The notes beneath the pieces are model-generated. The model ran no database searches and was not told where the DNA came from. It was given only the letters and a program-made list of their open reading frames with translations. Of a stretch of DNA of 64,000 nucleotides, positions 7,060 to 30,004 are shown in pieces; the stretch's first letter is position 1, and each line of letters begins with the position of its first letter. The position numbers were made by a program, and so were the translations under genes. The DNA comes from an uncultured Bacilli bacterium (GTDB taxonomy: Bacteria > Bacillota_I > Bacilli_A > RFN20 > CAG-631): NCBI GenBank assembly GCA_947599835.1, contig CANQFQ010000005.1, forward strand, positions 1 to 64,000. Direction: 5' to 3'.

Positions 7060-7061
7060 CA

Positions 7062-14031: not shown

Positions 14032-14469
14032 ATGTATAAAAAAATATCAGTATTTACATTATTTATATCAATGATTTTTCTTTTTTCGGCTTGTACTAGT
14101 AATACTAATTCCAAATATTCTAGTAGTATTGGCGATCGTTTGGATGATAAACCAATGTTGGTCGCTTCAATTCCACAAGAATTTATGTGTTTTGGAAAGA
14201 TTTATATCGATAATAATGAGGAAATTGAAACTTTAGGATCCGGAACAATGATAGGATACTTGGTTAATGAAAATGAATTAGATTTTTGGAAAAGTAAGGA
14301 TAATAACAATAATCTTGTTTACGCTACAGGTAATGATGTGTTTAGAAAAACGGATGAAGGTCAAGAAAACTTAAAAGACAGGTATGAATTATATTCCTTA
14401 GATGAAACGTATGATTGCTTGGCAATAAAAGAATATACAGGTAAGTTTAAGCTGTACTCTAAACAATGA
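14032..14469 (+). CDS. small lipoprotein (145 aa)
   Basis: Signal peptide with lipobox 'LFSAC' (Cys21). Preceded by the RBS 'aggagac'. Confidence 0.5.
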   Translation: MYKKISVFTLFISMIFLFSACTSNTNSKYSSSIGDRLDDKPMLVASIPQEFMCFGKIYIDNNEEIETLGSGTMIGYLVNENELDFWKSKDNNNNLVYATGNDVFRKTDEGQENLKDRYELYSLDETYDCLAIKEYTGKFKLYSKQ

Positions 14470-14488
14470 AAAAAACAAAAATTTAATT

Positions 14489-14791
14489 ATGTTATGTATT
14501 CTTTTGTTATCAATATTTACTATGAATTTAACGGTTAGTAACTATGATACGAAAAGAAATTCCGCTGATACTATTAACCAATTGGAATTCGTGGCTGAAG
14601 AGTTAAGTGATGTACAAGAAAGAATTGATATAACTAATGGTTTTAGCAAATTGGCTGTTAGCCATAGTTATGATGATTTTACATACAAAGCAGCCAATAT
14701 GATTAATTATAATTTATCTACAAAAAATATTTCTTATGAAAATTTCAATATGGATTCATATCAGAATAGACATAATAGTGTAAATATTTAA
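14489..14791 (+). CDS. hypothetical small protein (100 aa)
   Basis: ORF with a hydrophobic N-terminus located inside the islet. No recognisable motif. Confidence 0.3.
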   Translation: MLCILLLSIFTMNLTVSNYDTKRNSADTINQLEFVAEELSDVQERIDITNGFSKLAVSHSYDDFTYKAANMINYNLSTKNISYENFNMDSYQNRHNSVNI

Positions 14792-14830
14792 GATACAACT
14801 TCTACTTATTCGAATGTTAATTTAGATAAT

Positions 14831-16037
14831 TTGGACTATAAAAATATTGAAAAAAGTGAATCTTATATGCCAGAAGATATACAATTTGCGATTTCTCCAA
14901 CTTCAATAATTGGATCTGTTAATAGAACTCAAGTTTTACAAACTAGAGATTGGCCTTATCGTGGCATAGTGAAAATGTATATGACCTTTAACAATGTGTT
15001 AAATCAAATTGATGGAAAATATCATGATCGCATTTTTATTGGGACTGGATTTATAGAAGGACCAAATTTAATGGTCACCACTGAACACTGTGGATATAAT
15101 GATGTAACTAATGATGAAAATTACGAAGATGGCATATCAAATCCTAGATTTCCCGATAAGATTGAAGTGTATGCAGGAATAAATGGTTATAGCGAACGTT
15201 CAACATCCTATATTTATTATGCAGAAGTTTCTGTAATTAATATTCAAAAAGAATATTTTAAAACTACTTCGACAAATTATGATTGGTGTGCTATGCAACT
15301 AGACCGTGACTTGGGAGTACAAACTGGTTATTATGGTAAAATCAGTAATTTGTATGAGAGTAAGGCATCTGTCTACTCTTATGGATATCCAGGAGATAAA
15401 CCAACTAATACAATGTGGGAAACTCATGGGACACTTATTGAAAAAAAATGATTATAAATATAGTTATGATTTTGACACTTATGGCGGTCAAAGTGGTTCA
15501 CCTGTTTTCATGACCGCTACTGATGGAGCTATTTATGTGTGTGGAATACACACGTCTGGTAGTTCATCTGCTAATTATGCAACTAGAATAAATTCATTTA
15601 TTTTTCATTATTTAAATAGCTTTGTGTCTTATCATAATTATGAGCATCTTGCTGCAACAATTGTCCCAACTGATTATGGCTTTGCTGATGCTTATCCAAC
15701 TGATGACTATACAAAAACAAATTATGCCACACATACTTTATCTTCTGGATTCCAATTTCAAACAAGGAGATATCGTACTGGTTATATTCAAAATGAATAT
15801 ATTGTTATGTCGCCATTTAGAAATGGCATTACAGAAGCGTTTATCGAATATAAATTTGATGTACCAGTAACAAAAATTGAGGTTGATTTAGCACATTGGA
15901 GATCTTTATCTAATGAGTGGACGTATAGTGATTATCTCAGTGCTGTTCTTAGAATACCTGATGGTAATGGATATAATAATGTATCGATTTATTATCTTCA
16001 TCAACTAATTTTCCAACAGATAGAACTAATCCGATGA
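14831..16037 (+). pseudogene. V8/glutamyl-endopeptidase-like S1B serine protease, interrupted by a +1 frameshift in an A8 tract (15441-15448)
   Basis: Catalytic His in 'LMVTTEHCG', Asp in 'NYDWCAMQLD' and Ser in 'GGQSGSPVF' are split across two overlapping frames (14831-15451 and 15306-16037). Deleting one A restores the continuous protein '...THGTLIEKNDYKYSYDFDTYGGQSGSPVF...'. Confidence 0.65.
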
Positions 16038-16279
16038 CCTACACAATTGAATTTTCAACACCAGTTTATATATTCCAATTCTATATGCAAAGTAAACGTA
16101 TAAACACAAATGATAATAATCGGGGGAGAATTTGTATTGGCAATCTAAATATTTTTACTAAAGAGGGGTGGTATTGATTCTTAAATTGTTTTAATAAAAT
16201 ATTAGTTCAATTTTTGTTGAAATAGTTAATGAATTTTATAAAAAAGCGTTAAATATAGCATTAATAATTCAAAATATTT

Positions 16280-16310
16280 ACTCACTCATTAAATTGGGTG
16301 AGTTTTTTTA
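16280..16310 (+). terminator. rho-independent terminator at the end of the islet genes
   Basis: Stem actcac/gtgagt followed by T7. Confidence 0.4.
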
Positions 16311-16561
16311 TTATTTAAAATTTGTTGAATATAATACTAGTCATAAATAACCAATAAACGTCCTTAGAGCGAAGGTAGTTAGAATAATGGTTTTAGAAGA
16401 AAAGGCAAAAGAAATTGATTTAAATCAAAAGAACATTAAAGTTAAAAACTTTTTATAATTAAACTATTATAATCTAAAATCGTATTTGAGACGTTTTAGA
16501 TTATGTATTATCGCGTTTTAGTTTTTTAAAAAAATTTGTATTATTTGCGTTTTCATTAGAT

Positions 16562-16668
16562 ATCGACGAATAAAGCCTGATTTTTAGGTTTTTTTATTTT
16601 TCATTATAGTCATTTAAAAACAGATTTTAGGTAATGTAACAAGGCATTTTTCTAAACCCTTTTTGATG
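16562..16668 (+). repeat. direct repeat, right copy (partner of 13655-13762)
   Basis: ~95% identical to the left copy. The terminator hairpin inside it is degenerated (cct..aggttt). Confidence 0.8.
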
Positions 16669-16920
16669 TATTAATTTAGAGTGGAGACGCAAAGATACAC
16701 TTTTGATTTTACTTAGTTTTTGAAATTTAAATTTTAATTAAACCTTATAAAATAAATGCTGCGTTCCATTTATTTTCATTTTTATCGATTTTACCGATAA
16801 AAATGAACATAAATTAGAGGATCAAAAACATTTTTTACACTCATTTTTAATCGTTTTATTCATATATCATTTTTTAGCTTTTGAAATTTTATTCTTAAAA
16901 TTTTGAATTTATGATTTTAT

Positions 16921-16955
16921 AAAAATTGTGCAGCCACCAGCTGCACAATTTCAAT
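16921..16955 (-). terminator. bidirectional rho-independent terminator ending the minus-strand nine-gene operon
   Basis: 9-bp perfect stem ttgtgcagc/gctgcacaa with a 5-nt loop. T-rich tracts flank it on both strands. Confidence 0.55.
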
Positions 16956-17078
16956 TTTAAAATATTCTCGATAAAATTTAATCCTGTTTTAAAGATGAAA
17001 ATTCTTTATGAATTTCAAAAGATAAATTATTAAAAGTACATTAAATAAAATTAAAAGCAACCTTTTTAATTTATTATA

Positions 17079-19805
17079 TTACTTTAACAATAGAACTGCT
17101 AACCAAATTACAGCAATTATCGAAATTATAAAATAAATTATATAAAAAATTTTAAATTCAATATTAACTTCGTCAACACCATCTTCAACATTACATCTTA
17201 CCATGTAATATCCTCTTATAGTATTAGGAATACAACCTACAAAAAAAATCGTAAGAGGTAGAAGAGATTCGTTGTCAATCTTGCATACGAGCCAAACAAT
17301 CATAACATCTAATGCCAAAGTAAAAATAATATCAAATATCACATTAAAAACATTTATTGTTTTTATTTTGGCTCTTGTTTTTCTATCTTGTACATTTACT
17401 ACTTTTCCAAATTGATCTTCTAATTCTCTATCGTTACAAAATTCAATCACGTATCTCATTTTGCCATATAAAGAATGCTTATTTACACTTGCAGGCAGTT
17501 GACTCACTGTTTTAACTTTGTAATATTCAAATAATTCATTTAAATACATATCAAATAATTTCTTACATAAATTTAATGAATTTTTTTTAATAATTTCTAC
17601 GCAATTGTCCTTAAATAAAACTGATTTATCAATAAATACATTATCTAATATTTCTTGTTTAATTTGACATTCAGCTAAAAATTCTTTTACTTTTTTCAAT
17701 TTATCAGGTAAAAATTGAAAAATGTTTTCCGAATTAGGATGTTTTTCAAAATAACAAGTTGTCGCAGAAATGTAATTCTCATCTTCAAAAAGTACACTAG
17801 CATCATCTGCTAAAGACAAATAATTACTATATTTTCGATTAATCATGTATCGAACGATATATGCATTATAATTATATTTATCAATTGATAATAACATATT
17901 ATTATATTTTGTTAATAATTCCCATTTATCTTGACAATTAGAAATTAACAATTTTTTATCTATAAAAGTTTCAATATATTCAATAAATAAATCGTTTTCG
18001 TAACTAGGAATTAACCCTAAAATAAAATCAAAAAGAGGAATAGCTTTAGTAATATCATCATTAGGCACACTTACAATTACATTAAATAACAGATTTTCAG
18101 CTTCTTCATTGAAACTATATGAAAAAAGTTCATTTTCAATCGTTTTGAAATTATTTTGATTAAAGAAATAAGCAGATTTTTGCTTATGATCAAGCAAATT
18201 ATGAACATATAAAAAGTTATTTAACAAAGCAATACTGCATGAAGGATCCACTTCTAATATATTTTTATAATATTTGCTGGAAACAGATAATGACGGAAAT
18301 AAACTAGCAAAGGTTATATTCATATCAATATATTTTTTTGTATCATCTATAGTTTTAATTAATGAATCAAAAAGTTGTGTGTCACAGGTTTCTTTTGCAT
18401 GAGCGTACATTATATTTGTTAATTCATCTATTTTTTTATCGTCTGATTCAGATAAAGTGATATATTCTTCATAGCATATTCTATCTTGTGTATTGTAAAC
18501 TCTCATATAGAGCAAATTATAATATTTACTTCTTTCCTCAAAATTAGAAGTGGCAAGTGCTTTTTCAAAATAATCAATGTAGCCAATAGAACTACTGACA
18601 AGAGTAAAGGTTTTTTCACTATCAATTGCATTTGATGCTAAGAACAATAGCCAATAAACTTTCCCAACATTTGGATTATTCTTAATGAATTCGTTTGCAA
18701 AACGAATGGCTAAATCATATTTTTTAGAAGTTAAAAAATCTTCTATCATTTTTATTTTCGATGTATCAGAAGCGGTTACTTTAGATAATGCATTATTGCT
18801 AGTATCAATATTTCTTTTTTTGATAACTTGTTTAATGGTATCTTTTTTACTAACTTTTACTTTTGAATAATCCTTTCTATCAATATGAAAATCAATGTCG
18901 TTGACTTTGTATTTTTCAATAAATGATTTAATGATATCAAATGCATATGCATTATTATATTGAACACCTTGAATTTTTCCATTTATTTTTGGCAGCTTTT
19001 CAATAATTTGGTTGGTAAACACAATGGTAACGCTATCATTTTCTTTCGATTTATCATTAATCATTTGAATAAATCTAGTATATTCGTTTTGAACCCAAGG
19101 AGTTCTTAAATAATTTTCATCAAGACAAACGATTAACATACATTTCGCTGAGTATAAAGCATATAAAATTCTGGCTTCATATTTTGCACCAGCTTGATTT
19201 TTAATTTCAACTTCAGAATAGAAAGGCTTATAGCCCTCTTCTTTTAATCGGTAATATAAATCTTGAGCAATGCGACTATCTTCAGTAAATCCTTTGTTTT
19301 CATCACGAACTTTAACACAAATAAAACAATCATAAGATAATCCACTTTGTTTTAAATTATAAAATTCATCTTTAATTTCGTCTATTTCCACTGCTTTTTC
19401 TTGATAAATTTTTCTTTGTTCAACATTAGCATATTTTAAAGCGAGTTGATAATCCTTATCAGCAATGAATTTTTTGTTATTAATATCGTGACATATAGGT
19501 TGAAGATGTTTGTTGGCTACATCTTTTAAATATTGTATTTTATGACTTGCTAAGGCCATCCCAAAATAGGCTTCGGGTTCTGTTTCATCTTCTTCAAGAA
19601 CATTTTTAAAAGTTTCATAGGCATTATCAAATTCACACAAATCTAAATGATGTTTAGCTAATTGAATATCATTTAGATTTTCTTTTTTTATTGGTAATGT
19701 ATATGAATTGAAACATCTTTTACATTGAATTACACCATTTTTAGCCGTTGAAATATCTAAGGGTTCCCCACATGTTTCACACGTAAATTTAATTAATCCA
19801 TCCAT
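17079..19805 (-). CDS. zinc-ribbon + TIR-like domain protein with long alpha-helical region and C-terminal transmembrane tail anchor
   Basis: N-terminal C-x2-C...C-x2-C ribbon 'CETCG...CKRC'. Residues ~150-260 'YDCFICVKV...IAQDLYYRLKEEGYKPFYSE...CMLIVCLDENYLRTPWVQNEY' match the TIR fold pattern (compare plant 'DVFLSYRG...LSENYASSSWCLDEL'). The last ~25 aa 'FYIIYFIISIIAVIWLAVLLL' form a hydrophobic helix. Confidence 0.6.
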   Translation of the reverse strand: MDGLIKFTCETCGEPLDISTAKNGVIQCKRCFNSYTLPIKKENLNDIQLAKHHLDLCEFDNAYETFKNVLEEDETEPEAYFGMALASHKIQYLKDVANKHLQPICHDINNKKFIADKDYQLALKYANVEQRKIYQEKAVEIDEIKDEFYNLKQSGLSYDCFICVKVRDENKGFTEDSRIAQDLYYRLKEEGYKPFYSEVEIKNQAGAKYEARILYALYSAKCMLIVCLDENYLRTPWVQNEYTRFIQMINDKSKENDSVTIVFTNQIIEKLPKINGKIQGVQYNNAYAFDIIKSFIEKYKVNDIDFHIDRKDYSKVKVSKKDTIKQVIKKRNIDTSNNALSKVTASDTSKIKMIEDFLTSKKYDLAIRFANEFIKNNPNVGKVYWLLFLASNAIDSEKTFTLVSSSIGYIDYFEKALATSNFEERSKYYNLLYMRVYNTQDRICYEEYITLSESDDKKIDELTNIMYAHAKETCDTQLFDSLIKTIDDTKKYIDMNITFASLFPSLSVSSKYYKNILEVDPSCSIALLNNFLYVHNLLDHKQKSAYFFNQNNFKTIENELFSYSFNEEAENLLFNVIVSVPNDDITKAIPLFDFILGLIPSYENDLFIEYIETFIDKKLLISNCQDKWELLTKYNNMLLSIDKYNYNAYIVRYMINRKYSNYLSLADDASVLFEDENYISATTCYFEKHPNSENIFQFLPDKLKKVKEFLAECQIKQEILDNVFIDKSVLFKDNCVEIIKKNSLNLCKKLFDMYLNELFEYYKVKTVSQLPASVNKHSLYGKMRYVIEFCNDRELEDQFGKVVNVQDRKTRAKIKTINVFNVIFDIIFTLALDVMIVWLVCKIDNESLLPLTIFFVGCIPNTIRGYYMVRCNVEDGVDEVNIEFKIFYIIYFIISIIAVIWLAVLLLK

Positions 19806-19826: not shown

Positions 19827-20570
19827 TTATTTTTTAATATTTACTTTACACTCTTCAATAAATTTTTGAATTGTGTTTGATGGGATTGCAAAATTCATAC
19901 CTTCGGCATCCGTTATTCCTGAAACTACCATGCCAATAACTTTTCCATTAGCATCGAACAATGGACCTCCTGAATTTCCACCATTAATAGCACAATCCGT
20001 CATTATTAAAGATTTTCCATTAACATTTCTTAATTTGTCACTAACAATACCTTCAGTGATACATGTTCCATACCCTAATGAATTACCAACAGCAAACACT
20101 TTTTGACCATTCTTTATTAAGTTTGAATCTGCAAAAGTTATATGATTTGTTTTCATTGATACATCCATTAATTTTAATAATGCAAGGTCTACACCAGACC
20201 CTCTACCCCCTTGATCATCGCCAATCGCAATCACTTTAGTTGTTATTTTTTTATTATTTAAAATAACAACAACTGTTTCTGCAATGTTGCTATTAAATGT
20301 GACAACATGGGTATTCGTAATTGCATATCCATCACTTGAAATCAAAAATCCTGAACCAGCAGCAGCTTCGCCATTACTCGATTGTGTAAAGATTTCTAAA
20401 ATGGCATCACAATTTTTTTCATAAACCATAGCGCCACTATCTAATTTTTCATTTTTAAATGATGGATTTTCATCATAATTATCTTTATCAATGGTGGAAC
20501 CACAAAAGTTACAAATATATTTATTATTAACTAGTTTCATTGTGCCACCACAAACTTTACAAATTGCCAT
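19827..20570 (-). CDS. zinc-ribbon + trypsin-like (HtrA/S1C-type) serine protease
   Basis: N-terminal 'CKVCGG...CNFCG' ribbon. Catalytic triad in 'TNTHVV', 'DLALLKL' and 'GNSGGPL'. No PDZ domain. Confidence 0.65.
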   Translation of the reverse strand: MAICKVCGGTMKLVNNKYICNFCGSTIDKDNYDENPSFKNEKLDSGAMVYEKNCDAILEIFTQSSNGEAAAGSGFLISSDGYAITNTHVVTFNSNIAETVVVILNNKKITTKVIAIGDDQGGRGSGVDLALLKLMDVSMKTNHITFADSNLIKNGQKVFAVGNSLGYGTCITEGIVSDKLRNVNGKSLIMTDCAINGGNSGGPLFDANGKVIGMVVSGITDAEGMNFAIPSNTIQKFIEECKVNIKK

Positions 20571-20591: not shown

Positions 20592-23372
20592 TTATTTTTC
20601 ATTTTTATAATCCCAGATTAGTTGTGATTTATGACTCCCATACCACTGTTTATCCCAATTAGATGGAGTCAATCCCAAAAATGGTTTTTTGCGTTCTAAT
20701 TTAACAATTAAGGAACTAGGGCATAATGAAAATATATCATATCCAATTTTTGAAACACTACTTGGGATAACTATACTTTTTAAAGAATCGCAATTATAAA
20801 ATGCATGAGAACCTATGCTTGATAATTTACTATTTGATTCAAAATTAATAGTTTGTAATGAGAAGCAATTAGAAAATGCAGATTCTCCGATACTTGTTAC
20901 ACTACTTGGAATAACTATGTTGGCTAATGAACTACAAACATTAAATACAGTTTTTCCGATACTTGTTAATTTACTATTTGATTCAAAATTAACAATTTTT
21001 AATGATTTGCAATTAGAAAATGCAGATTCTCCGATACTTGTTACACTACTTGGAATAACTATGTTGGCTAATGAACTACAATCATTAAATACAGTTTTTC
21101 CGATACTTGTTAATTTACTATTTGATTCAAAATTAACAATTTTTAATGATTTGCAATTAGAAAATGCAGATTCTCCGATACTTGTTACACTACTTGGGAT
21201 AACTATACTTTTTAAAGAATCGCAATTATAAAATGCATGAGAACCTATGCTTGATAATTTACTATTTGATTCAAAATTAATAGTTTGTAATGATTCACAA
21301 TTACAAAATGCATATTCTCCGATACTTGTTACACTACTTGGGATAACTATGTTTGTTATTGAAGTACAATCCCTAAAAGCCTTTTTATCTATAACTGCCA
21401 CATCATATTGCTTTCCATTAATAGTAATTGTTGATGGAATGACTACATCATTTCCTAACTGACTTGTATATTTACTTATTACTGCTTTCCCTTCTATAAT
21501 TAAATAATGTATTCCTGCTTGCTCTAAATAATTATTATCATTGATTCCCCAGTAAACAGCTTGATTATCTGGATTCCAATCATTATCCCAACCTTCTGGT
21601 TTTGATAAAGCTGCACAATAGATTGTTAAAGAATAGCAATCGTCAAATACCTCGTATCTTATACTTGTTACACTACTTGGTATTACTATGCTTTCTAAAC
21701 AATAACAATTCACAAAAGCGCGTATTCCTATACTAGTAACATCATATTGTTTTCCATTAATAGTAATTTGTGATGGTATTACCACATCATTTTTTAATTT
21801 ATTTGTATGCCCAGTTACTACTGCTTTGTTATCTATAATTACATAAATTATTCCATTTTGTTCTAAAAAATTATTTTTATTAATTTCAAAATAAACAGGG
21901 TTATGACCATAATTACATATTTTATCCCAATCTCTAGGTTTTGATGTTACTTCACAATATATTGTTAATGTACTACAATCACGAAATACAGAATCTCCAA
22001 TACTTGTTACACTACTTGGTATAACTATACTTGGTAAATATTCACATTTAGAAAAAGCCTCATCACCAATTTCTTTGACGCTACTTGGTATAATTATACT
22101 TTCCAATTTGCTTTTTCTAAATGCATTTTCTTCAATATAAATAAGACTCTTAGGTAGTTCAACACTGGTAACATCAGCATTTTCAAATGCAGATTTTTCA
22201 ATTGTTTCAATAAAATCAGGAATTTTAACTACTGTATCATGACCAATATATTTGATTAATGAAGACCCTTTTATATTGAATTTTCCTTCATCATACATTG
22301 GTTTACTAGAATGACTATTAATAATTATTTGCTTTTGAGCATTACTTAATTCACTGATTTGCTCTTGCATTTTTTTAGTTGCATTTTCTTGCTCTTTATT
22401 TTTTTCTAATTCTTTTTGCTTTTGTTCTTCTTTTCTTTTTTTACTTTCTGGAGTGTGACTCTCTACATACTGAACTATTTTATCTAAGCAACTTAAAGTA
22501 TGACTTCTATCAATACCTTGAAGTTTTTGGTTTCTTCCCGGTATTTTTTCGATAACTTCTCTATTATATATAATGACAATACTATCTGTATCTTTAGTAT
22601 CCTCGTTAATCATTTGCAAAAAACGTGAATATTCATTTTTAACCCATTTCGTCCGTAGATATTCTTCTTTGGAACAGACAATTAACATACATTCACTTTC
22701 ATATAAAGCATATAAAATTCTTGCTTCATAATCTGCACCTGTCGCATTTCTTAATTCTCTTTCTGATAAAAATGGTCTATAGCCTTTGCCTTTTAATTCA
22801 TAATACAATTCATCGGCAAATTGATAATCCTCAGTTTTATTTTGTTGATTCTCATCACTAACTTTTACACAAATAAAACAATCATAGGCCAATCCACTTT
22901 CTTTTAATTGATAGAATTCTTGTTGAATTGTATCAATTTCAGATGCTTTTTCTAAATATATTTTCTTTTGATTTTCTGTTGCATATAAAGTGGCTTTTAA
23001 ATAATTGATATCATCACTCATTTTTTTATTATTAATTTCGTGACATATAGGTTGTAAACGATTGTTTACCTCATCTTTTAGATATTGTATTTTATGGGTT
23101 GCTAAAGCCATACCAAAATAGGCTTCGGGTTCTGTATTATCTTCTTCTAATACTTTATTAAATGAATCATAGGCTTTATCAAATTCACACAAATCTAATT
23201 GATTGTTTGCTATTTGTAGTAATGTTTTTGTATTATTACTAGCATTTTCTTTAGGTAAAGTAAAAATACTATGGCAATATTTACATTCAATTATACCATT
23301 ATGGGCATTAGTTACATCTAAAGTATTTCCACAATTTTTACATACAAAATCATTTAATTGTGCACTCATCAT
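20592..23372 (-). CDS. zinc-ribbon + TIR-like domain + coiled coil + BspA-type leucine-rich-repeat protein
   Basis: Paralog of 17079-19805 in its first ~270 aa ('CKNCG...CKYCH' ribbon, TIR-like 'YDCFICVKVSDEN...CMLIVCSKEEYLRTKWVKNEY'). Then a K/E-rich coiled coil. The C-terminal half is 'IVIPSSVTSIGESAFSNC' BspA-like LRR units. Confidence 0.6.
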   Translation of the reverse strand: MMSAQLNDFVCKNCGNTLDVTNAHNGIIECKYCHSIFTLPKENASNNTKTLLQIANNQLDLCEFDKAYDSFNKVLEEDNTEPEAYFGMALATHKIQYLKDEVNNRLQPICHEINNKKMSDDINYLKATLYATENQKKIYLEKASEIDTIQQEFYQLKESGLAYDCFICVKVSDENQQNKTEDYQFADELYYELKGKGYRPFLSERELRNATGADYEARILYALYESECMLIVCSKEEYLRTKWVKNEYSRFLQMINEDTKDTDSIVIIYNREVIEKIPGRNQKLQGIDRSHTLSCLDKIVQYVESHTPESKKRKEEQKQKELEKNKEQENATKKMQEQISELSNAQKQIIINSHSSKPMYDEGKFNIKGSSLIKYIGHDTVVKIPDFIETIEKSAFENADVTSVELPKSLIYIEENAFRKSKLESIIIPSSVKEIGDEAFSKCEYLPSIVIPSSVTSIGDSVFRDCSTLTIYCEVTSKPRDWDKICNYGHNPVYFEINKNNFLEQNGIIYVIIDNKAVVTGHTNKLKNDVVIPSQITINGKQYDVTSIGIRAFVNCYCLESIVIPSSVTSIRYEVFDDCYSLTIYCAALSKPEGWDNDWNPDNQAVYWGINDNNYLEQAGIHYLIIEGKAVISKYTSQLGNDVVIPSTITINGKQYDVAVIDKKAFRDCTSITNIVIPSSVTSIGEYAFCNCESLQTINFESNSKLSSIGSHAFYNCDSLKSIVIPSSVTSIGESAFSNCKSLKIVNFESNSKLTSIGKTVFNDCSSLANIVIPSSVTSIGESAFSNCKSLKIVNFESNSKLTSIGKTVFNVCSSLANIVIPSSVTSIGESAFSNCFSLQTINFESNSKLSSIGSHAFYNCDSLKSIVIPSSVSKIGYDIFSLCPSSLIVKLERKKPFLGLTPSNWDKQWYGSHKSQLIWDYKNEK
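20760..21310. repeat. near-perfect ~144-bp tandem DNA repeats inside the LRR coding region
   Basis: Units starting at 20878, 21022 and 21166 are essentially identical (48-aa unit 'NFESNSKLTSIGKTVFNDCSSLANIVIPSSVTSIGESAFSNCKSLKIV'). The flanking segments 20761-20877 and 21195-21310 are also mutually identical. Confidence 0.7.
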
Positions 23373-23389: not shown

Positions 23390-25462
23390 TTAATTTCCAC
23401 TGCGATCATTCATTTGCTTCCATTCTAATAACTTTTCGATATCTTCTTTTTGAACAGAGGATGAAAAAGTTTCAAGAATAGAAGTAAAATCATTCATATT
23501 GATATATTTTTTAGTTCCACCAATTGCTCTTAAGGCAGAACGTTCTTCCACTTGATCTAAGAAGTTTGAAATATCAGAACCATTAAATCCATTCATTCTT
23601 TCAACTAAAGCATCAATATCGATATCATCTATGACTTCAACAATACCTTTTGCCTTCAATTTTTTAAGTCGTAATTCTAACATATATTTTCTAGCATCAT
23701 TATCCGGCAAACCCACATAAACGCGATTTCCAAAACGACCCGGACGAATAAATGCACTATCCACATCCCATGGTTTATTCGTTGCAGCGATGCAAAATAA
23801 GATGTTATTGCTTTTTTTACCATATTCTTCAATGCCTTGAAGTTGTGCTAATAATTCTGATCTTAATTGCTTTGCATATTGGGATTTAGTGTTTTTAGGT
23901 GAAATGGCGTCCATTTCATCAAAATAAATCACAGCACATGGAAATTCCCTTGCTTGACTGAATAAAGCTCTAACTGCTTTTTCCGTATTTCCTGCACCTT
24001 GATTTAATAAATCGGAAGGTTTAACCGAACAAAACTTAGCATGAATTTCATTAGCAATGGCAGCAGCAATCATTGTTTTTCCTGTTCCTGGAGGACCATA
24101 TAAAAATAAACCTCCTCCACTTTTACGAACATAACCTTCAAAGGCCTTCGGCTCTTGTAAAGGTAATAACACTTTAACTTTTACAACATTTTTAACCTCT
24201 TCAAGCCCAGCAATATCATCAAACTTAATGGTGGGCAATTGATCCCAATTAAATTTAAATAAACTATTGTCAGTATTATAATTTTCATCTAACACTTTAT
24301 CTTCTGGTTTACTATTTTTATCATTATGATCAACACGTTCCTCACGAGGTATATTATTATCTTTACGAGATATATTAATATTTAAATCTTGAACACGGAT
24401 AAGGGCGATTTCTTCATTAGATATTTCTTTTAATCTAGCAATGCGTTTGGATTGATTCGTTATTATATTTTCAAACAGATTTCTAACATCTCGGCCATTA
24501 CCAAAATTTCTATCTCGATTTTGGTACAAATCATCAAAATATTGTTTTAAAACTGCTTTTGCTGCAGGTTCTAAAACATATTGATTTTTATCGCATAAAT
24601 TGATGAAAATTTGATATAAATCATCGCCATTATAATCTTCAAAATGAATATAATTCTTAAATCTTGAACGTAATCCTGGATTAGATTGAATAAACTTTTC
24701 CATCAAGTTTTCATAACCAGCAATAATAACAACGAGATTATCTCTTTTGTCTTCCATGTCTTTTAAAATTGTATCGATGGCTTCATTTCCAAAATCTGTA
24801 GCGCCTTTATTGGCTAAAGAATAAGCTTCATCAATAAATAAAACACCCCCATATGCTTTATCTAAAACCGCTTGCGTTTTAAGTGCCGTTTGTCCCACAT
24901 AACCAGCAACTAATTCTTGGCGGTCTACTTCAACTAATTGACCTTCACTTAAAATTCCAAGTGCTGCATAAATTGAAGCCATTAAACGGGCTACAGTTGT
25001 TTTTCCTGTTCCAGGATTTCCAGTAAATACTAGATGATAAGACATATCCGGAATTGACATGTTTCTTTCTTTTCTCATCTTAAAAACTTTGATTTGGTCA
25101 ATCCAGTCGTGAACTTGATTTTTAACTTTTTCAAGACCTATTAATTCATCTAATTGTTTTAAGGCTTCTTCTAATGAAACCTTTTCGTTTTTGATGACTT
25201 TTATATCGTTTGTAACTTCTTTATTTTTTTCTACCGGCTTTGGTTCTTTTTGGATACTATCCGCAAATTGAATGATGCTTTTCGCTCTTTCGTATCTTGC
25301 TTTTTGAAGTTCACCTTTCGTTTCTTTTGCCATATTTAACATTTGTTCTGCGGCTAATAAATAATATCTTTTAGCAAGCATCTTATCGCCTTTTTCTAAA
25401 CATTCTTTGGCTTTTTTATAATATAAATTAAAGGTCTCGTTAAGTATACTAATGTCTTTCAT
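23390..25462 (-). CDS. MIT-domain protein with two AAA+ ATPase domains (Vps4/SpoVK-like)
   Basis: N-terminal three-helix MIT-like region 'YYKKAKECLEKGDKMLAKRYYLLAAEQMLNMAKE'. First AAA of CbbX/SpoVK type 'FTGNPGTGKTTVARL'. Second classical AAA 'LYGPPGTGKTMIAAAIANE...YFDEMDAI'. Confidence 0.7.
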   Translation of the reverse strand: MKDISILNETFNLYYKKAKECLEKGDKMLAKRYYLLAAEQMLNMAKETKGELQKARYERAKSIIQFADSIQKEPKPVEKNKEVTNDIKVIKNEKVSLEEALKQLDELIGLEKVKNQVHDWIDQIKVFKMRKERNMSIPDMSYHLVFTGNPGTGKTTVARLMASIYAALGILSEGQLVEVDRQELVAGYVGQTALKTQAVLDKAYGGVLFIDEAYSLANKGATDFGNEAIDTILKDMEDKRDNLVVIIAGYENLMEKFIQSNPGLRSRFKNYIHFEDYNGDDLYQIFINLCDKNQYVLEPAAKAVLKQYFDDLYQNRDRNFGNGRDVRNLFENIITNQSKRIARLKEISNEEIALIRVQDLNINISRKDNNIPREERVDHNDKNSKPEDKVLDENYNTDNSLFKFNWDQLPTIKFDDIAGLEEVKNVVKVKVLLPLQEPKAFEGYVRKSGGGLFLYGPPGTGKTMIAAAIANEIHAKFCSVKPSDLLNQGAGNTEKAVRALFSQAREFPCAVIYFDEMDAISPKNTKSQYAKQLRSELLAQLQGIEEYGKKSNNILFCIAATNKPWDVDSAFIRPGRFGNRVYVGLPDNDARKYMLELRLKKLKAKGIVEVIDDIDIDALVERMNGFNGSDISNFLDQVEERSALRAIGGTKKYINMNDFTSILETFSSSVQKEDIEKLLEWKQMNDRSGN

Positions 25463-25531: not shown

Positions 25532-26104
25532 TTAGTTTCCCATTTTCTTTTTTAGTTCAGCTAATTCCTTTTCAATCATTGTGTCTGTCATATTATCTGA
25601 AGTAACTTCATTACCAATAAGGTGCTCTAATTCTTCTTTTTCCTCTGGTGATGAACTAGCATTTGTTTCAAATGCAGATGAAGTTTCTTCCATGAAGTTT
25701 TCCATTTGCGTTGCTTGAATTTCAGCACCAATCATGGCTTCAGAGAATTGTTTTTGAACTTTATCAAATTCTTTTTCTTTTGTCAGTTTTAACATATCTT
25801 TACTTAAAATACTCATTCCCTTTAGAAATTCTTTCGTCATTTGTGTCATATCTTTCATTTGCGAAGTAATTTCAAAATTTAATTTCATTTCATAAATTCT
25901 TCTTTGCTGAGTAATGACCATTTTAAGTCCAGAAATCGCTAAATTATATTGCGCAGTTAAACCTTTTTCTTTTGCTTGTTTTCCAGCATCAATATAGGTT
26001 TGCTTTTGCTTTTCTAACTGTTCGATTTGTTTATTCATCGCATTAATGGTTTGTTTTATTTGCATTCTTTTGGCAATTTCTTTTCTATGATTCATAGCTA
26101 GCAT
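25532..26104 (-). CDS. Snf7/ESCRT-III-family protein with C-terminal MIM1-like motif
   Basis: Helical hairpin pattern 'GLKMVITQQRRIYEMKLNFE...KEFLKGMSILSKDM...FDKVQKQFSEAM' matches the Snf7 core. Acidic linker. C-terminus 'DTMIEKELAELKKK' fits the MIM1 consensus (D/E)xxLxxRLxxL(K/R). Its start overlaps the upstream stop (TAATG). Confidence 0.55.
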   Translation of the reverse strand: MLAMNHRKEIAKRMQIKQTINAMNKQIEQLEKQKQTYIDAGKQAKEKGLTAQYNLAISGLKMVITQQRRIYEMKLNFEITSQMKDMTQMTKEFLKGMSILSKDMLKLTKEKEFDKVQKQFSEAMIGAEIQATQMENFMEETSSAFETNASSSPEEKEELEHLIGNEVTSDNMTDTMIEKELAELKKKMGN

Positions 26105-26709
26105 TACTCCTTCTTCGTTTCAACATTTTTTTGTTTTTCATTAACTTCATATAATTCTTGTTCACTAGCTACTTGGTCTTCTTGTTCAAGCATAGCAAGT
26201 AAAGCATTATCTTGTTCATTCATACCATAAATGGTTTCATTCTTTTCATAACTTTCTTCAATAGCGTTAAATAATTCATCAGAATCAGTTAATATATCTT
26301 CTGCGGCGATTCTAATATTTAATGCTTGATTTAAAAATTTGGCCAAGCCTTTTTGATCACTTAATAGCTTATTTAAAGGCATTTTCGTGTTATTTTTAAA
26401 GAATTGATTATCATCAATTGCATTTTTTAAACGGTTTAATAATTGCGAATTATAAAGTAAATACAAAATTCTTTGTACATCTTGTTCGCGTTCTTTTTTT
26501 AAAACATTAATTTTCTTTGCATATAAAAGTTTAATGGCTTTATCGGTTTCTTTACGACCTTTTTCCATTAATTCATTGACTTTATTTTGTTTTTCCAATA
26601 ATCCATCTTCAAGTTCTTGAGATTGCTTATCTAGTTGACAAATGGCATCGACAACCTCTTCACGTGTTAATTTTTGATATTTGCTTTTAAATGGCCACAT
26701 ATCCATCAC
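26104..26709 (-). CDS. Snf7/ESCRT-III-family protein (second paralog)
   Basis: N-terminal 'MWPFKSK' resembles CHMP N-termini. 'VVDAICQLDKQSQELEDGLLEKQNKVNELMEKGRKETDKAIKLLYAKKINVLKKEREQ' matches the Snf7 alpha1-alpha2 hairpin. Acidic C-terminal region. Confidence 0.5.
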   Translation of the reverse strand: MMDMWPFKSKYQKLTREEVVDAICQLDKQSQELEDGLLEKQNKVNELMEKGRKETDKAIKLLYAKKINVLKKEREQDVQRILYLLYNSQLLNRLKNAIDDNQFFKNNTKMPLNKLLSDQKGLAKFLNQALNIRIAAEDILTDSDELFNAIEESYEKNETIYGMNEQDNALLAMLEQEDQVASEQELYEVNEKQKNVETKKE

Positions 26710-27036
26710 CTATAATTTTGAATTTCTTTCTGCTATTAATACATAAAGTTCTTTGATCATTTTAGCTGTTTTTTCAGCATCATCTTTTTCTTTATATAAC
26801 CATTGCTTGAAGTCATCAATTGCGTTGGCGATTTTTTTATCTCCATCATAAACTTTAGATAAATCAGAAGCCGTTAAATATTGAAGTTTTTCTTGAAGTT
26901 TTTTTAATTCTTCTTTGCAAGTTGCATTACTAGTTAAACTAATTAAAACATCAATCATGACCGCATTTTTTGAAATAAGTTGTTGATCTTCACTTCTTTG
27001 CGTACTTTTTAATTGTTTCTTTTGAAAATAATTCAT
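26710..27036 (-). CDS. small alpha-helical protein of unknown function (operon member)
   Basis: ORF 26710-27069. I prefer the ATG at 27034-27036 (protein starts 'MNYFQKK'), which overlaps the stop of the upstream gene by 4 nt. Predicted helical. Confidence 0.4.
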   Translation of the reverse strand: MNYFQKKQLKSTQRSEDQQLISKNAVMIDVLISLTSNATCKEELKKLQEKLQYLTASDLSKVYDGDKKIANAIDDFKQWLYKEKDDAEKTAKMIKELYVLIAERNSKL

Positions 27037-28106
27037 TTTTTGTCCTCCTCTGTTAATTTTGCTCCACATTCACTACAAAAAATTGCACCGGCATCATTTT
27101 TATGTTTACATTTTGGACATACAATCGGCTCTTTAGATACTCTAAAGCCACATTTAGGACAGAATTTATCACTTGCTTTATAAGTGGCACCGCATTTAGG
27201 ACAAACGTTATGGTGTGCACTCATTTCTTTTTGATTACCCATGATTTTTAAAACTTCATAATAAGCTTGTTTATCTCTAAGTTCTAATTCTCTTAAATAT
27301 TTTTGCTTTTCCCATTCTTTATCATTTAAGCGTTCTATTTCTTTTAAATATTCTTTTAATTGTTCTTGTTTTCTTTTTTCAGCCGCTTCTAATTCTTCTT
27401 GTTTTTTCTTTTCAGCAGCTGCAGTTTCGATTGCTGCCATTTCATCATCTTGTAAATGAATATCTTCAATAATAAAGTTAACAAGACTAATGCCCCATTC
27501 TTGGATAAATTTGTCGCTTAAAAGTTTGCCAATTTCTTCAGCAATTCTTTTCTTATTTAAGGCAAATTTGTCATAAGTCATTTTTTCACTTGTAACTACT
27601 TTTAAGAAGCAATCCGCAAATTCATTGATAACTTCACCAGAAAAACGTCTTTGGAAATCTTCAAGATTAAATTCTTTTTTAGATCCAACTACTTTTCTAA
27701 AAAATTGTTCATGATTAGAAATACTAATACCAAATTGTCCTCTCGCACCAATGGTGATGACTTTATTCGAAACTTCATCGCGATATCTAAACCGATTAGG
27801 CGTTCCCCATAAAATAATCACATTAGTTTCTTTAGGCATATAAACAACTTCCACTGAAATGCCTTTTTTCCAGTTTTTTATTTCGTTTTTACTTTCAAAA
27901 ATAGCATATGTACCACTTTCATAACTCTTAGCATTGCCACCGCCAAGGATGAGCATTGCCTTATGCGTATAAGGAACTTCTAATAAAGCCTTTTTATCGT
28001 TGACAACGCCATTTACACGCACAAATAAAATGTTATTATCATCCACACTAGCCTTACATAAATTTTGTTCAAATTTGATAACTTGGACTTTTTTATTAAA
28101 TATCAT
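27033..28106 (-). CDS. SPFH/band-7-like (YdjI-like) domain protein with C-terminal triple zinc ribbon
   Basis: C-terminus has three CxxC...CxxC pairs ('CPKCG...CPKCG...CPKCK...CSECG'). The middle is a K/E coiled coil. The N-terminal ~200 aa beta-rich domain resembles the Band_7_1/YdjI family found next to pspA in Bacillus; that assignment is inference. RBS AAAGGAG upstream. Confidence 0.45.
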   Translation of the reverse strand: MIFNKKVQVIKFEQNLCKASVDDNNILFVRVNGVVNDKKALLEVPYTHKAMLILGGGNAKSYESGTYAIFESKNEIKNWKKGISVEVVYMPKETNVIILWGTPNRFRYRDEVSNKVITIGARGQFGISISNHEQFFRKVVGSKKEFNLEDFQRRFSGEVINEFADCFLKVVTSEKMTYDKFALNKKRIAEEIGKLLSDKFIQEWGISLVNFIIEDIHLQDDEMAAIETAAAEKKKQEELEAAEKRKQEQLKEYLKEIERLNDKEWEKQKYLRELELRDKQAYYEVLKIMGNQKEMSAHHNVCPKCGATYKASDKFCPKCGFRVSKEPIVCPKCKHKNDAGAIFCSECGAKLTEEDKK

Positions 28107-28687
28107 AATGCACTGTACTCCTTTAGATAAATAGTATATTTCGCCTTTATAATAACCCCCCCCGCTTTATGTCAACTTAAAATTACATTTTTCGACATTG
28201 GTGTTACAAAAAGCATTCAAAGACCTTATATAGACTACATTTGGAAGCTATTCCATCCTCATTATTTTTAGAAAAAGCAACACAAAAAACGGAACTTTGG
28301 ATTCAAAAAGTGAATGCTTAGAACTCTATTTAATCATTAAAAAAATGACACTCATTGGCCTAGAATTGAGCGTATCATGGCTAGTGAAAGTATAGGTAAT
28401 CGCCTATAATCAAACGTAAGATTCTTATCAAAAAGCAAGTTTATTTTGTCTTATGATTTCTATTTAAATATACGATTATATCGGTAATTTTAAAAGTTTT
28501 CAAAATAACGTGTGCCTCATTTTTATGCATCAAAGAGGTCTATTCAAAACAATGATGAAATTCCTTCATCATAACCGCTATTTCCTTTTTTTTGAAGCAA
28601 TTTAATATCATGTTTTCCTTTTTTTTGAAGTTTTTTAGGCGTCTACTTGCCACTTTTTTGAAATTGTGATATTATTTCATTGTAAGG

Positions 28688-30004
28688 ATGGTGCTATTTA
28701 TGGAACGACAAGCTATGGAAAATCTAATCGATTGGAAACAAAATCATAAAGGAAAACCATTAATTATTTATGGCCCTAGGCAAGTAGGAAAAACTTATTT
28801 GGTTAGAGAATTTGCTAAAAAATTTTATGATAATATTTTTGAAATCAATTTTGAAATTGATGATAATGCTAATAAAATATTTGAAGATAATTTAACTATC
28901 AAACAACTTCTAAAGCGGTTATCGGCCTACGATGTTGATAATATCATCATTCCTAAAAGAACGCTTATATTTTTAGATGAAGTTCAAAAATGCCCAAGAG
29001 CAATAACAGCCTTAAAATCATTTGCACAAGATGGTAATTATGATGTCATTGCCTCTGGTTCCATGCTTGGTGTTACTTTAAATAGTGTATCATCCTATCC
29101 AGTAGGTTATGTTGAAACAATCTATTTAAAACCTTTGTCATTTAAAGAATTCTTATGGGCTAATAAATATAGTGATAGTCATGTTCAAGACCTCAAAGAA
29201 TATTATAAAAACGAACAAAAGGTACCCGAAGGATTACATAATATTTATAATAATTTATTTTTACAATATATTGTTGTTGGCGGTATGCCAGAAGTCGTAC
29301 AAACCTTTATAGAAACGAATAATATTGGATTAGTAGTTAAAAAACAACAATCTATTATTGATAGCTACAGCAAAGATATTGCTAAATATTCAACAAACTT
29401 AATCAAAGAAAGAGTTAGAGAATGTTATCATTCGATTCCTGATCAATTAGCAATGGATAATAAAAAATTCCAATATAAATTGCTTCAATCTGGAGGTAAA
29501 TCAAGTCGTTTTTATTCTAGTATCCAATGGATTGAAGATGCTGGGCTAATTAATAAAATATATCGTTTGAAAACATTTGATATTCCTTTAAGAGCCTATC
29601 AAGATAAGTCTTGTTTCAAATTATATTTCATGGATACAGGTTTATTACTAGCTATGTATGGTGGTAAAAATCTCCAAGGAAAGATATTAGCGGGTGAAAT
29701 AGGAATCTTTAAAGGAGCTTTGTTTGAAAATGTAATTGCTCAAATTCTTGTTGGTAATGGCTTAGTCCCTTATTATTATCGTCGTGATGATCGGTTAGAA
29801 ATTGATTTTGTAATTACACTAGATGATAAAATTGTACCAATTGAAGTAAAAGCAGGAACAAATACCAAATCAAAAAGTTTCATAAATATTATCGAGAAAC
29901 AAAACTTAGAATATGGAATCAAATTATCCATGAACAATGTGAATTGTACTAATCCAAAATATAAATGTTTTCCATTATATATGACCATGTTTATTAAAGA
30001 TTAA
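28688..30004 (+). CDS. AAA+ ATPase of the AAA_14/DUF4143 family
   Basis: Walker A 'IIYGPRQVGKTYL' and Walker B 'LIFLDEVQ', with a C-terminal DUF4143-like region. The true start may be the ATG at 28700 ('MERQAMENL'). Confidence 0.55.
   Translation: MVLFMERQAMENLIDWKQNHKGKPLIIYGPRQVGKTYLVREFAKKFYDNIFEINFEIDDNANKIFEDNLTIKQLLKRLSAYDVDNIIIPKRTLIFLDEVQKCPRAITALKSFAQDGNYDVIASGSMLGVTLNSVSSYPVGYVETIYLKPLSFKEFLWANKYSDSHVQDLKEYYKNEQKVPEGLHNIYNNLFLQYIVVGGMPEVVQTFIETNNIGLVVKKQQSIIDSYSKDIAKYSTNLIKERVRECYHSIPDQLAMDNKKFQYKLLQSGGKSSRFYSSIQWIEDAGLINKIYRLKTFDIPLRAYQDKSCFKLYFMDTGLLLAMYGGKNLQGKILAGEIGIFKGALFENVIAQILVGNGLVPYYYRRDDRLEIDFVITLDDKIVPIEVKAGTNTKSKSFINIIEKQNLEYGIKLSMNNVNCTNPKYKCFPLYMTMFIKD

Follow-up and report, generated by a model that had tools for sequence, protein, structure and literature searches.

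A cluster of minus-strand genes in a 64,000-nucleotide stretch of DNA from an uncultured Bacilli bacterium (GenBank assembly GCA_947599835.1, contig CANQFQ010000005.1, positions 1 to 64,000; hereafter the window) probably encodes the membrane-remodeling core of a bacterial system akin to ESCRT-III and the ATPase Vps4. At its center are a 190-amino-acid (aa) Snf7/ESCRT-III-like protein (25532–26104, minus strand) and, downstream, a 690-aa ATPase (23390–25462, minus strand) that begins with a domain predicted to have the fold of a microtubule-interacting and transport (MIT) domain. The initial annotation of this DNA had read the C-terminal helix of the smaller protein as a MIT-interacting motif of type 1 (MIM1), matched by the MIT domain of the adjacent ATPase, and had favored a Vps4/ESCRT-III-type system over a chance coiled coil. 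That preference is supported by Snf7 matches within the family of the 190-aa protein, by conservation of its tail motif, by the recurrent pairing of the two genes, and by relatives of the ATPase that have the layout of Vps4. Genes of the cluster are on the minus strand throughout.

Conservation of the gene pair

The pairing recurs well beyond the window. A single scan of species-representative genomes, started from a close alignment of homologs of the 190-aa protein, gave 49 loci with 52–71% identity, all from Christensenellales or other Clostridia with the exception of L026 (Acidiphilium sp.). In nearly all of these genomes an ATPase with the same N-terminal domain clusters with the Snf7-like gene, usually directly downstream; in some loci a gene for a TIR-domain protein sits between the two. 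Three genes flanking the cluster in the window were also tested, and none has a counterpart in any of the 49 loci. In eight distant clusters a MIT-AAA ATPase gene accompanies a Snf7-like gene in every case, directly downstream in seven and upstream in the other (L050), and the pairing is kept across clusters that share only ~25–40% identity. The order SPFH protein, small helical protein, Snf7-like protein, Snf7-like protein, MIT-ATPase is conserved over a wide sequence distance. The pairing pointed out in the initial annotation is conserved, the two genes sharing a cluster in nearly all 49 genomes and in all eight distant clusters.

Snf7-like protein and its family

The 190-aa open reading frame (ORF) is present as initially described, with a C-terminal end that reads ...DNMTDTMIEKELAELKKKMGN. 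Its true start is probably the second ATG, at 26095, which would give a protein of 187 aa, since a GGAG box lies 11 nt upstream of this codon (and 2 nt from the first ATG) and the homologs are 187 aa long. A profile search of 1.84 billion representative proteins (E ≤ 1e-3) placed the protein in a family of 382 clusters at 50% identity, of which genomic context was inspected for only a handful; members whose organism could be named come from Clostridia or other Firmicutes. Among 67 diverse members of the family, 26 match the Pfam model Snf7 (PF03357), with a best E-value of 9.6e-7 and with matches that span model positions 2–154 of 171; the individual scores that were inspected (16.9–24.5 bits) are below the gathering cut-off of 27.3 bits. 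The next commonest Pfam family is matched by at most five of the 67. When a profile of these 67 members was compared with 177,635 sequences from the PDB, the best match was CHMP2A (E = 4.8e-4), with CHMP1B and Vps24 lower in the ranking and all alignments collinear; no PspA or Vipp1 was among the PDB matches. Membership of the PspA/IM30 family was considered and rejected, as PF04012 is not among the Pfam matches listed for the family and the PDB profile search returned no PspA/Vipp1; in structural comparison Vipp1 is only a weak fold match to the model of the 190-aa protein (Foldseek).

The AlphaFold model of the protein consists of helices at residues 2–47, 50–107, 110–148, 153–165, and 170–189, which gives the long hairpin followed by three more helices that the ESCRT-III architecture requires, with a predicted local distance difference test (pLDDT) score of 67.6 overall and 76–88 in the hairpin. 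The top PDB matches of this model in Foldseek are CHMP2A-CHMP3, CHMP1B, CdvB, Vipp1, and Asgard ESCRT-IIIB, with probabilities of up to 0.99. The window protein starts with MNHRKE and is without an N-terminal α0-type motif; most of its distant relatives start with MGLFKSK, which resembles the N-termini of CHMP proteins. Family-level Snf7 matches, the CHMP2A profile match and the predicted fold together agree with the initial description of the protein as ESCRT-III-like, and they place this bacterial family in the ESCRT-III superfamily, as a putative divergent branch on its Snf7 side.

MIM1-like C-terminal helix

The helix proposed as a MIM1 motif, DTMIEKELAELKKK, is present as residues 174–187 (25544–25585) and is amphipathic; it had been described as the last 14 residues of the protein, which is not literally so, as the residues MGN follow it. 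The claimed fit of DTMIEKELAELK to the consensus (D/E)xxLxxRLxxL(K/R) holds at five of six positions, the central Arg being replaced by Glu. In 23 close homologs (63–71% identity), no variation is seen at I177, E180, and L181, and conservation reaches at least 90% at L184, K185, K186, and M188. Over a wider set of 98 full-length representatives (~25–60% identity), the pattern [DE]xxFxxxFxxF, in which F stands for I, L, M, or V, was found in the last 30 residues of 41 members, against a mean of 5.4 and a maximum of 11 in shuffled sequences and against 12 of 475 other 30-residue windows of the same proteins; this corresponds to an enrichment of ~8-fold over shuffles at a fixed position, the motif usually ending 6–7 residues from the C-terminus. 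The consensus of the wider family, D-x-E-I-(D/E)-K-K-L-x-E-(L/I)-K-K-K, keeps the MIM1 spacing and has Lys at the position of the MIM1 Arg, and the tail of the Snf7-like protein in cluster L057 (IxxRLxxLK) has Arg there. An amphipathic helix ends all of the Snf7-like proteins in the eight distant clusters. As its sequence is kept across the family and is concentrated at the C-terminus, we regard the helix as a real MIM1-like sequence motif and not as a chance match.

ATPase with a MIT-like domain

The 690-aa ATPase carries near its start, at residues 22–47, the helical sequence to which the initial annotation had drawn attention. AlphaFold predicts residues 1–69 to form three helices with pLDDT of 97–99, Foldseek agrees, and the best structural match of this N-terminal domain (N-domain; residues 1–72, 25247–25462) is the MIT domain of Sulfolobus Vps4. 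The three-helix MIT-type bundle that had been proposed is thus borne out by the predicted structure; sequence models gave no MIT match. In hhalign, the N-domain gave a weak match (P = 0.028), in register and at 32% identity over 41 columns, to an alignment of the MIT domains of VPS4A, VPS4B, and yeast Vps4, three sequences that had been verified against the PDB; a profile homology search with the N-domain returned 11 short fragments only. By predicted fold and by its position in the protein, we assign it as a candidate MIT-fold domain.

Behind the N-domain, the ATPase has two AAA domains and a C-terminal helix. The first AAA domain (D1; residues 96–364, 24371–25177) is of the SpoVK/CbbX/EccA type; both of its Walker motifs are intact (A, GNPGTGKT; B, LFIDEAY), its pore loop (AGYVGQT) is aromatic, and it also matches CbbX structure 3syk, EccA1 structures, and AAA_lid_6. 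Its scores are all below the equivalog cut-offs (TIGR02881, 294.8 vs 422.95 bits; CbbX, 242 vs 459; EccA, 283 vs 467), and as judged by these models D1 belongs to the broader SpoVK/CbbX/EccA subfamily only. The second (D2; residues 400–690, 23393–24265) is a classical Vps4/CDC48-like AAA domain (CdvC, 190 bits; CDC48, 195 bits) with Walker A GPPGTGKT, Walker B IYFDEMD, and RPGRF arginine fingers. The Pfam Vps4_C model (PF09336) scores 19.4 bits on the window ATPase, below the cut-off of 21.3 bits, and a few close homologs carry a precomputed PF09336 match. A PDB ranking of the whole ATPase was rejected as a means of clade assignment: it was dominated by p97/CDC48 and is uninformative, as the scores of the two domains add.

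With two AAA domains, the window ATPase departs from the plain Vps4 layout of MIT domain, linker, one AAA domain, and C-terminal helix. That layout is found in six clusters, one from Christensenella sp. SUG1028 (L047) and five from metagenome contigs of more distant Firmicutes (L051, L054, L057, L062, L064), where ATPases of 380–487 aa, encoded after the Snf7-like gene, share this N-terminal domain, which is followed by a low-complexity linker and a single AAA domain, D1 being absent. The L047 ATPase passes the Pfam Vps4_C threshold (23.9 vs 21.3 bits), and its residues 8–377 align end to end with positions 7–364 of 370 of the NCBIfam CdvC model; the L054 ATPase aligns with yeast Vps4 at 38% identity over 274 residues with matching offsets (E = 7e-55). 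Their pore loops read SKW(V/F)GE (L047, L051, L054) or Y(V/F)GE (L062, L064), and by comparison with yeast Vps4 the L047, L051, and L054 proteins are without the β-domain insertion and have RPGRF fingers. In two other clusters (L050 and L060) the MIT-like domain is followed by just one AAA domain, whose pore loop, L(I/V)G(N/Q)TAK, is of the SpoVK type. The simplest reading of these sequences is that the ancestral partner was Vps4-like and that a SpoVK-type ring was inserted in the window clade. Because D2 has lost its pore-loop aromatic, D1 keeps AGYVGQT, and the relatives keep SKW(V/F)GE, we infer that the inserted D1 ring took over threading, while ATP hydrolysis, and perhaps ring assembly, stayed with the Vps4-like ring.

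Weighing the ESCRT-III/Vps4-like assignment

Several observations count against placing these proteins with ESCRT-III and Vps4. Direct library searches with the 190-aa protein of the window gave no match, Pfam Snf7 being absent at E ≤ 1, and its Snf7 membership is therefore transitive and not direct, running through other family members and the family profile. Its AlphaFold model is only moderately confident, with a pLDDT of ~50 in the C-terminal helix, and the Foldseek E-values are weak (0.05–1) for the models of both this protein and the N-domain. The Pfam MIT model (PF04212) matched none of three N-domains at E ≤ 10, and PDB sequence searches with the N-domain, as a single sequence and as a profile, returned no MIT, so the MIT assignment rests on predicted fold and domain position. 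The central MIM1 Arg is Glu in the window clade, Lys in most relatives, and Arg in a few. Pore loop 1 of D2 is NQGAGNTEK where yeast Vps4 has SKWMGES, and has no aromatic residue; in Vps4, K205, W206, and M207 form the substrate pockets (PMC5716660). The CdvC model gives 190 bits for the window ATPase and 224 bits for that of L047 against an equivalog cut-off of 650 bits, and CDC48 scores about equally. The arginine fingers are RPGRF instead of the RR-RF of yeast Vps4. Because of these fingers, and because the CDC48 model scores as well as CdvC, orthology with Vps4 is unproven. The window ATPase falls outside the formal definition of Vps4/CdvC; the functional analogy appears strong.

A wholly different explanation would be chance, an ordinary coiled coil lying beside a generic AAA ATPase that has a fortuitous three-helix N-terminus. 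Coiled coils do yield spurious weak matches, the window protein is without a Pfam match, the Foldseek E-values exceed 0.01, and BAR domains and designed helical proteins are also among the structural matches; yet Snf7 is matched by 26 family members against no more than five for any other Pfam family, the top PDB match of the family profile is an ESCRT-III protein (E = 4.8e-4), and the tail motif occurs ~8-fold above shuffles at a fixed position. The pairing, moreover, is kept at ~25–40% identity, and distant relatives have the complete Vps4 layout. We consider coincidence very improbable.

SPFH and small helical proteins

The first core gene encodes a 357-aa SPFH (Band_7_1) protein (27033–28106; PF13421, E = 1.3e-15) that contains a coiled coil and ends in a double zinc ribbon (Zn_Ribbon_1, DZR). 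In most of the 49 loci, and in four distant clusters (L047, L054, L057, L060), the Snf7-like genes have an SPFH gene upstream.

The 201-aa helical protein (26104–26709) is encoded directly upstream of the 190-aa protein in every one of the 49 loci that spans both genes. Its likely start is Met4 at 26700 (MWPFKSKYQK...), and the resulting N-terminal motif, MWPFKSK/MGLFKSK, is common to the wider family. An hhalign comparison of the 201-aa family with the Snf7-like family gave P = 3.5e-4 over 161 collinear columns (probability 37%), and the 201-aa protein is probably a second, more divergent Snf7-like paralog. The initial annotation had suggested that this paralog might carry a proline-rich motif of the MIM2 type; no proline-rich stretch was found when such a motif was looked for, and the C-terminus has instead a conserved acidic-hydrophobic motif, IYGxxxxDDxLLAMFExEE, of which DDxLLAMFExEE occupies the place in question.

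Between the SPFH gene and these two genes lies an ORF for a 119-aa small helical protein (26710–27069), conserved in 27 of the 49 loci. A start at 27069 would overlap the SPFH gene, and Met12 at 27036 (MNYFQKKQ...) is likelier. The protein has no family match, and it was rejected as a third Snf7-like paralog, as hhalign comparisons with the Snf7-like and 201-aa families show no similarity. Its orthologs (examined in L003, L008, L018, L023, L025, and L036) start with MxFF(K/R)KK or with a genuine transmembrane helix. Because some of these proteins begin with a transmembrane helix, N-terminal hydrophobic-basic motifs of this kind are read as membrane anchors, and the N-terminus of the 119-aa protein is probably one.

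Proposed mechanism

We propose that the SPFH protein marks or scaffolds a membrane patch, to which the small proteins would bind via their N-terminal hydrophobic-basic motifs (MWPFKSK, MxFFKKK). The two Snf7-like proteins would then co-polymerize, the 201-aa protein acting as an anchored, initiator-like subunit; the 190-aa subunit, having lost its anchor in this clade, would be brought in by the 201-aa subunit and would display the MIM1-like helix. This helix is predicted to dock on the MIT domain and so to recruit the hexameric ATPase, which would extract subunits and thereby cause turnover or remodeling of the polymer. In the window clade, threading would probably be performed by the D1 ring with its aromatic pore loop, D2 keeping its ATPase motifs but not the pore-loop Trp-Met. 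The division between the 201-aa and 190-aa proteins would be reminiscent of the initiator and executor subunits of Asgard archaea and eukaryotes.

Another interpretation concerns the docking of the tail. The module could be real and the tail helix of the 190-aa protein no MIT ligand, acting instead within the polymer through an autoinhibitory or α5/α6-type contact; the MIT-like domain would then have another ligand, such as the SPFH protein, the conserved LLAMFExEE motif in the 201-aa protein, or the zinc-ribbon/TPR heads found on the TIR proteins described below. Such an arrangement is in keeping with the strong conservation of a separate acidic-hydrophobic motif at the C-terminus of the 201-aa family and with the lack of conservation of the central MIM1 Arg; in a small sample of eight distant pairs, inspection by eye showed no consistent pattern of charges covarying between motif position 6 and helix 3 of the N-domain. 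Autoinhibition and Vps4 recruitment need not exclude each other, however, and in eukaryotic ESCRT-III the same tail serves both. Against a purely internal role, the helix D-x-x-I-x-x-(K/E/R)-L-x-x-L-K keeps the spacing of MIM1 and lies at the extreme C-terminus after an acidic linker, like that of eukaryotic MIM1 subunits, and it co-occurs with the MIT-like domain in all of the distant clusters examined. MIT domains are known to recognize more than one type of motif (PMC9477494), which would accommodate a ligand other than MIM1. On this evidence we think it unlikely that the tail is not a ligand, and retain recruitment of the ATPase by the MIM1-like helix as the preferred scheme.

Comparison with known systems

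One of the nearest counterparts is the archaeal Cdv (ESCRT-III–Vps4) system, in the form of CdvB and CdvC in Sulfolobales and of ESCRT-IIIA/B and Vps4 in Asgard archaea. The N-domain has the MIT domain of Sulfolobus Vps4 as its best structural match, and the single-AAA relatives resemble CdvC in aligning end to end with its model, in having the Vps4_C helix, and in lacking a β-domain insertion. The system described here differs in its bacterial host, in the absence of CdvA and ESCRT-I/II genes from the cluster, and in its linkage to genes for SPFH, TIR, and protease proteins; the window ATPase further differs from CdvC in its extra SpoVK-type ring, its degenerate D2 pore loop, its RPGRF fingers, and CdvC model scores of 190–224 (window and L047) against 650 bits. 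Sulfolobus CdvB uses a proline-rich MIM2 (PDB 2w2u), whereas the 190-aa protein has a MIM1-type helix.

With eukaryotic ESCRT-III proteins (CHMP1/2/3, Vps2, Did2, IST1) the 190-aa family shares a (D/E)xxFxxxFxxF(K/R) helix, F being hydrophobic, after an acidic flexible linker, and it is CHMP2A that the family profile matches best in sequence; identity to these subunits is, however, ~15%, and the central Arg of MIM1 is Glu in the window clade. VPS4 differs from the window ATPase, which is two-ringed and has no Vta1-binding β-domain. The two paralogs resemble the split between B-type and A-type subunits of Asgard archaea and eukaryotes, with one membrane-anchor subunit and one subunit with an ATPase-recruiting tail (PMC11804906).

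Among bacterial systems, PspA/Vipp1 is similar in that a protein of the ESCRT-III superfamily is clustered with a Band_7/SPFH gene, and SPFH–PspA and SPFH–ESCRT links are known in Bacillus subtilis (PspA–YdjI) and in archaea (PMC10936438). Ravi et al. (2024; PMC11237479) described sporadic bacterial MIT plus Vps4-like ATPases in which snf7 is displaced by a TPR-6TM protein, a PspA-linked two-AAA ATPase of Clostridia with an inactive N-terminal AAA domain, and rare bacterial homologs of Snf7. In contrast to the first of these, Snf7-like genes are present here; in contrast to the second, the subunits match Snf7 and not PspA_IM30, and the Walker motifs of D1 are intact. D1 matches the SpoVK/CbbX/EccA proteins strongly; its position, flanked by a MIT-like domain on one side and an AAA domain of the Vps4/CDC48 type on the other, has not been described in those families.

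A 2025 review states that a Vps4-like ATPase appears to be absent from bacteria (PMC7619361). Neither this family nor a bacterial MIT–MIM pair was found described in full-text literature searches, which also gave no papers that use phrases such as ‘bacterial Vps4’ or ‘bacterial Snf7’.

Accessory genes and possible roles

Downstream of the ATPase gene are three accessory genes. The first (20592–23372) encodes a 926-aa protein with a zinc ribbon, a TPR-like region, a TIR domain (TIR_2, E = 7.4e-11), and BspA-type leucine-rich repeats (LRR_5, E = 4.4e-99), and is variable among loci; the second (19827–20570) encodes a 247-aa protein that combines a zinc ribbon with a serine protease domain of the trypsin-like (HtrA-type) kind (Trypsin_2, E = 1e-28) and is frequent; the third (17079–19805), again variable, encodes a 908-aa protein with a zinc ribbon, a TPR-like region, a TIR domain (TIR_2, E = 1.7e-9), an extended helical region, and hydrophobic segments at the C-terminus. 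A W-V-x-N-E motif, which we take to be the catalytic glutamate region of TIR NADases, is present in both TIR proteins (RTPWVQNEY and RTKWVKNEY). A zinc ribbon stands at the N-terminus of these two proteins and of the protease, and two lie at the C-terminus of the SPFH protein; zinc ribbons may be a shared adaptor theme. The leucine-rich repeat region of the 926-aa gene contains near-identical tandem repeats, SVTSIGESAFSNCKSLKIVNFESNSKLTSIGKTVFN... (20800–21500), which create spurious mirrored plus-strand ORFs at 20815–21231 and 21247–21462.

In the 49 loci, TIR and trypsin genes are frequent and their positions are shuffled, with only the N-terminal ~300 residues conserved; the protease gene is present in about half of these loci and in five distant clusters (L050, L054, L057, L059, L060). 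Partners in distant clusters include Band_7_1, trypsin, LRR_5, TIR, and BrxL-like ATPases. A BrxL-like gene (BrxL_N plus BrxL_ATPase) lies between the MIT-AAA ATPase and TIR genes in two unrelated ones (L047, 12054–13496; L062, 8775–10247); BrxL is a Lon-like protein of the bacteriophage exclusion (BREX) system. In L054 (2089–5762), genes for an FHA-Ser/Thr kinase, a PP2C phosphatase, and an RCC1-repeat protein are directly upstream of the SPFH gene, and a Lon-like protease is encoded downstream. In some cases a Snf7-like sequence of this family forms the N-terminal part of a long fusion protein, with RuvB-like AAA plus NERD or TnsA-like nuclease domains (P0284, P0289, P0318, P0342, P0360, P0373) or with FtsK/SpoIIIE ATPases (P0290, P0296, P0297, P0299); fusions in L057 (7001–9403) and L060 (391–2304) share their cluster with trypsin, Band_7_1, a free Snf7-like gene, and a MIT-AAA ATPase.

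Because TIR, protease, and nuclease partners vary around a constant core, the module may serve a conflict or anti-phage system, a role that we regard as evenly poised between right and wrong; in it, the module would, speculatively, sense or repair membrane damage or control effectors. Other results tell against this role. PADLOC detected no known defense system in the window; D2 gives only generic AAA matches to the IetA and TRIP13 models, and the TIR proteins give none. In L064 the core stands alone, adjoining cell-wall genes for FtsW/RodA and a penicillin-binding protein (PBP). The argument for defense would be one of guilt by association and is speculative. As to particular systems, the cluster is similar to TIR-based and ATPase-protease anti-phage systems (Thoeris, IetAS) in carrying TIR proteins and a serine protease beside an AAA ATPase; it differs in that no ThsA/ThsB match is found here and the protease is trypsin-like, and membership of either was rejected on model scores (IteA, 120 vs 510 bits; ThcB4, 21 vs 220 bits).

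The main alternative is a housekeeping module for membrane maintenance or the cell envelope in Christensenellales and related Clostridia, like PspA–YdjI, with the TIR and protease genes only loosely associated. Such a role would suit the presence of the core in 49 species genomes at 52–71% identity, loci without TIR or trypsin genes nearby (L001, L007, L011, L015, L023, L029), the core-only arrangement of L064 beside FtsW/RodA and PBP genes, and the ArgRS and class A PBP genes that flank the window cluster, in which PADLOC finds no known system. It fits less well with the three tested flanking genes, which have no counterpart in the 49 loci, or with the recurrence of TIR, trypsin, LRR, BrxL-like, NERD, TnsA, and FtsK partners in unrelated lineages, where their order is shuffled and their C-termini are hypervariable, a pattern typical of conflict systems; Snf7-like domains are also fused to nuclease or translocase effectors within the same clusters. 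We judge the housekeeping role to be possible, if rather unlikely.

Layout and genomic surroundings of the cluster

The eight minus-strand genes run from 28106 to 17079 and are spaced by short gaps or overlaps; no terminator-like sites were found on the minus strand over this interval. The region's top match to a σ70-like promoter, TTGAAA-17-TATAAT (11 of 12 positions), is upstream of the SPFH gene at 28475–28503 (minus strand) and is only suggestive, promoter-like sites being as numerous in shuffled sequence as in the region. Annotation of the cluster proteins was absent from all sources consulted. The cluster is flanked by housekeeping genes, for example those for ArgRS and a class A PBP, and the closest relatives of the window are gut metagenome-assembled genomes of Christensenellales and other Clostridia.

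The window has a G+C content of ~30%, which falls to 22.8% at 16001–18000, at the downstream edge of the cluster; this stretch may be an insertion boundary. ORFs at 14032–16037 have no Pfam match. A gene for an AAA_14/DUF4143 ATPase (28688–30004, plus strand) is divergent from the cluster and has no counterpart in the 49 related loci. In Christensenella sp. SUG1028, the cluster (L047) is downstream of SpoIIGA-like, sigE-like, and sigG-like ORFs and upstream of an nrdR-like ORF (labels assigned by eye; 5412–7703 and 15594–16052); with a SpoVK-type D1 present in other members of the family, a link to sporulation may be considered.

Biological implications

In its fullest form, the proposal is that these genes encode a complete and widespread bacterial machine of Snf7-type ESCRT-III proteins and a MIT-bearing, Vps4-like ATPase with MIM1-type recruitment, which would be the SPFH-scaffolded membrane arm of a modular immune system with TIR NADases, proteases, and nucleases or translocases as effectors, some of them fused to Snf7-like domains. 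We advance this joint claim tentatively, with slightly more doubt than belief. The pairing of Snf7-type subunits with a MIT-bearing classical AAA ATPase has been described in recent reviews as restricted to archaea and to eukaryotes, and its presence in bacteria, if confirmed, would bear on when the ESCRT-III/Vps4 partnership arose: the partnership would either be older than the archaeal lineage or have been transferred and reused for immunity. Within the family, the gain of an inserted SpoVK-type ring, accompanied by decay of the pore loop in the Vps4-type one, would represent an unusual apparent handover of threading between AAA rings. Confirmation would also connect ESCRT-like membrane remodeling with SPFH scaffolds and with immune effectors of the TIR, protease, and nuclease types, and the small operon would offer a simple bacterial model for dissecting the ATP-driven turnover of ESCRT-III by a Vps4-like ATPase.

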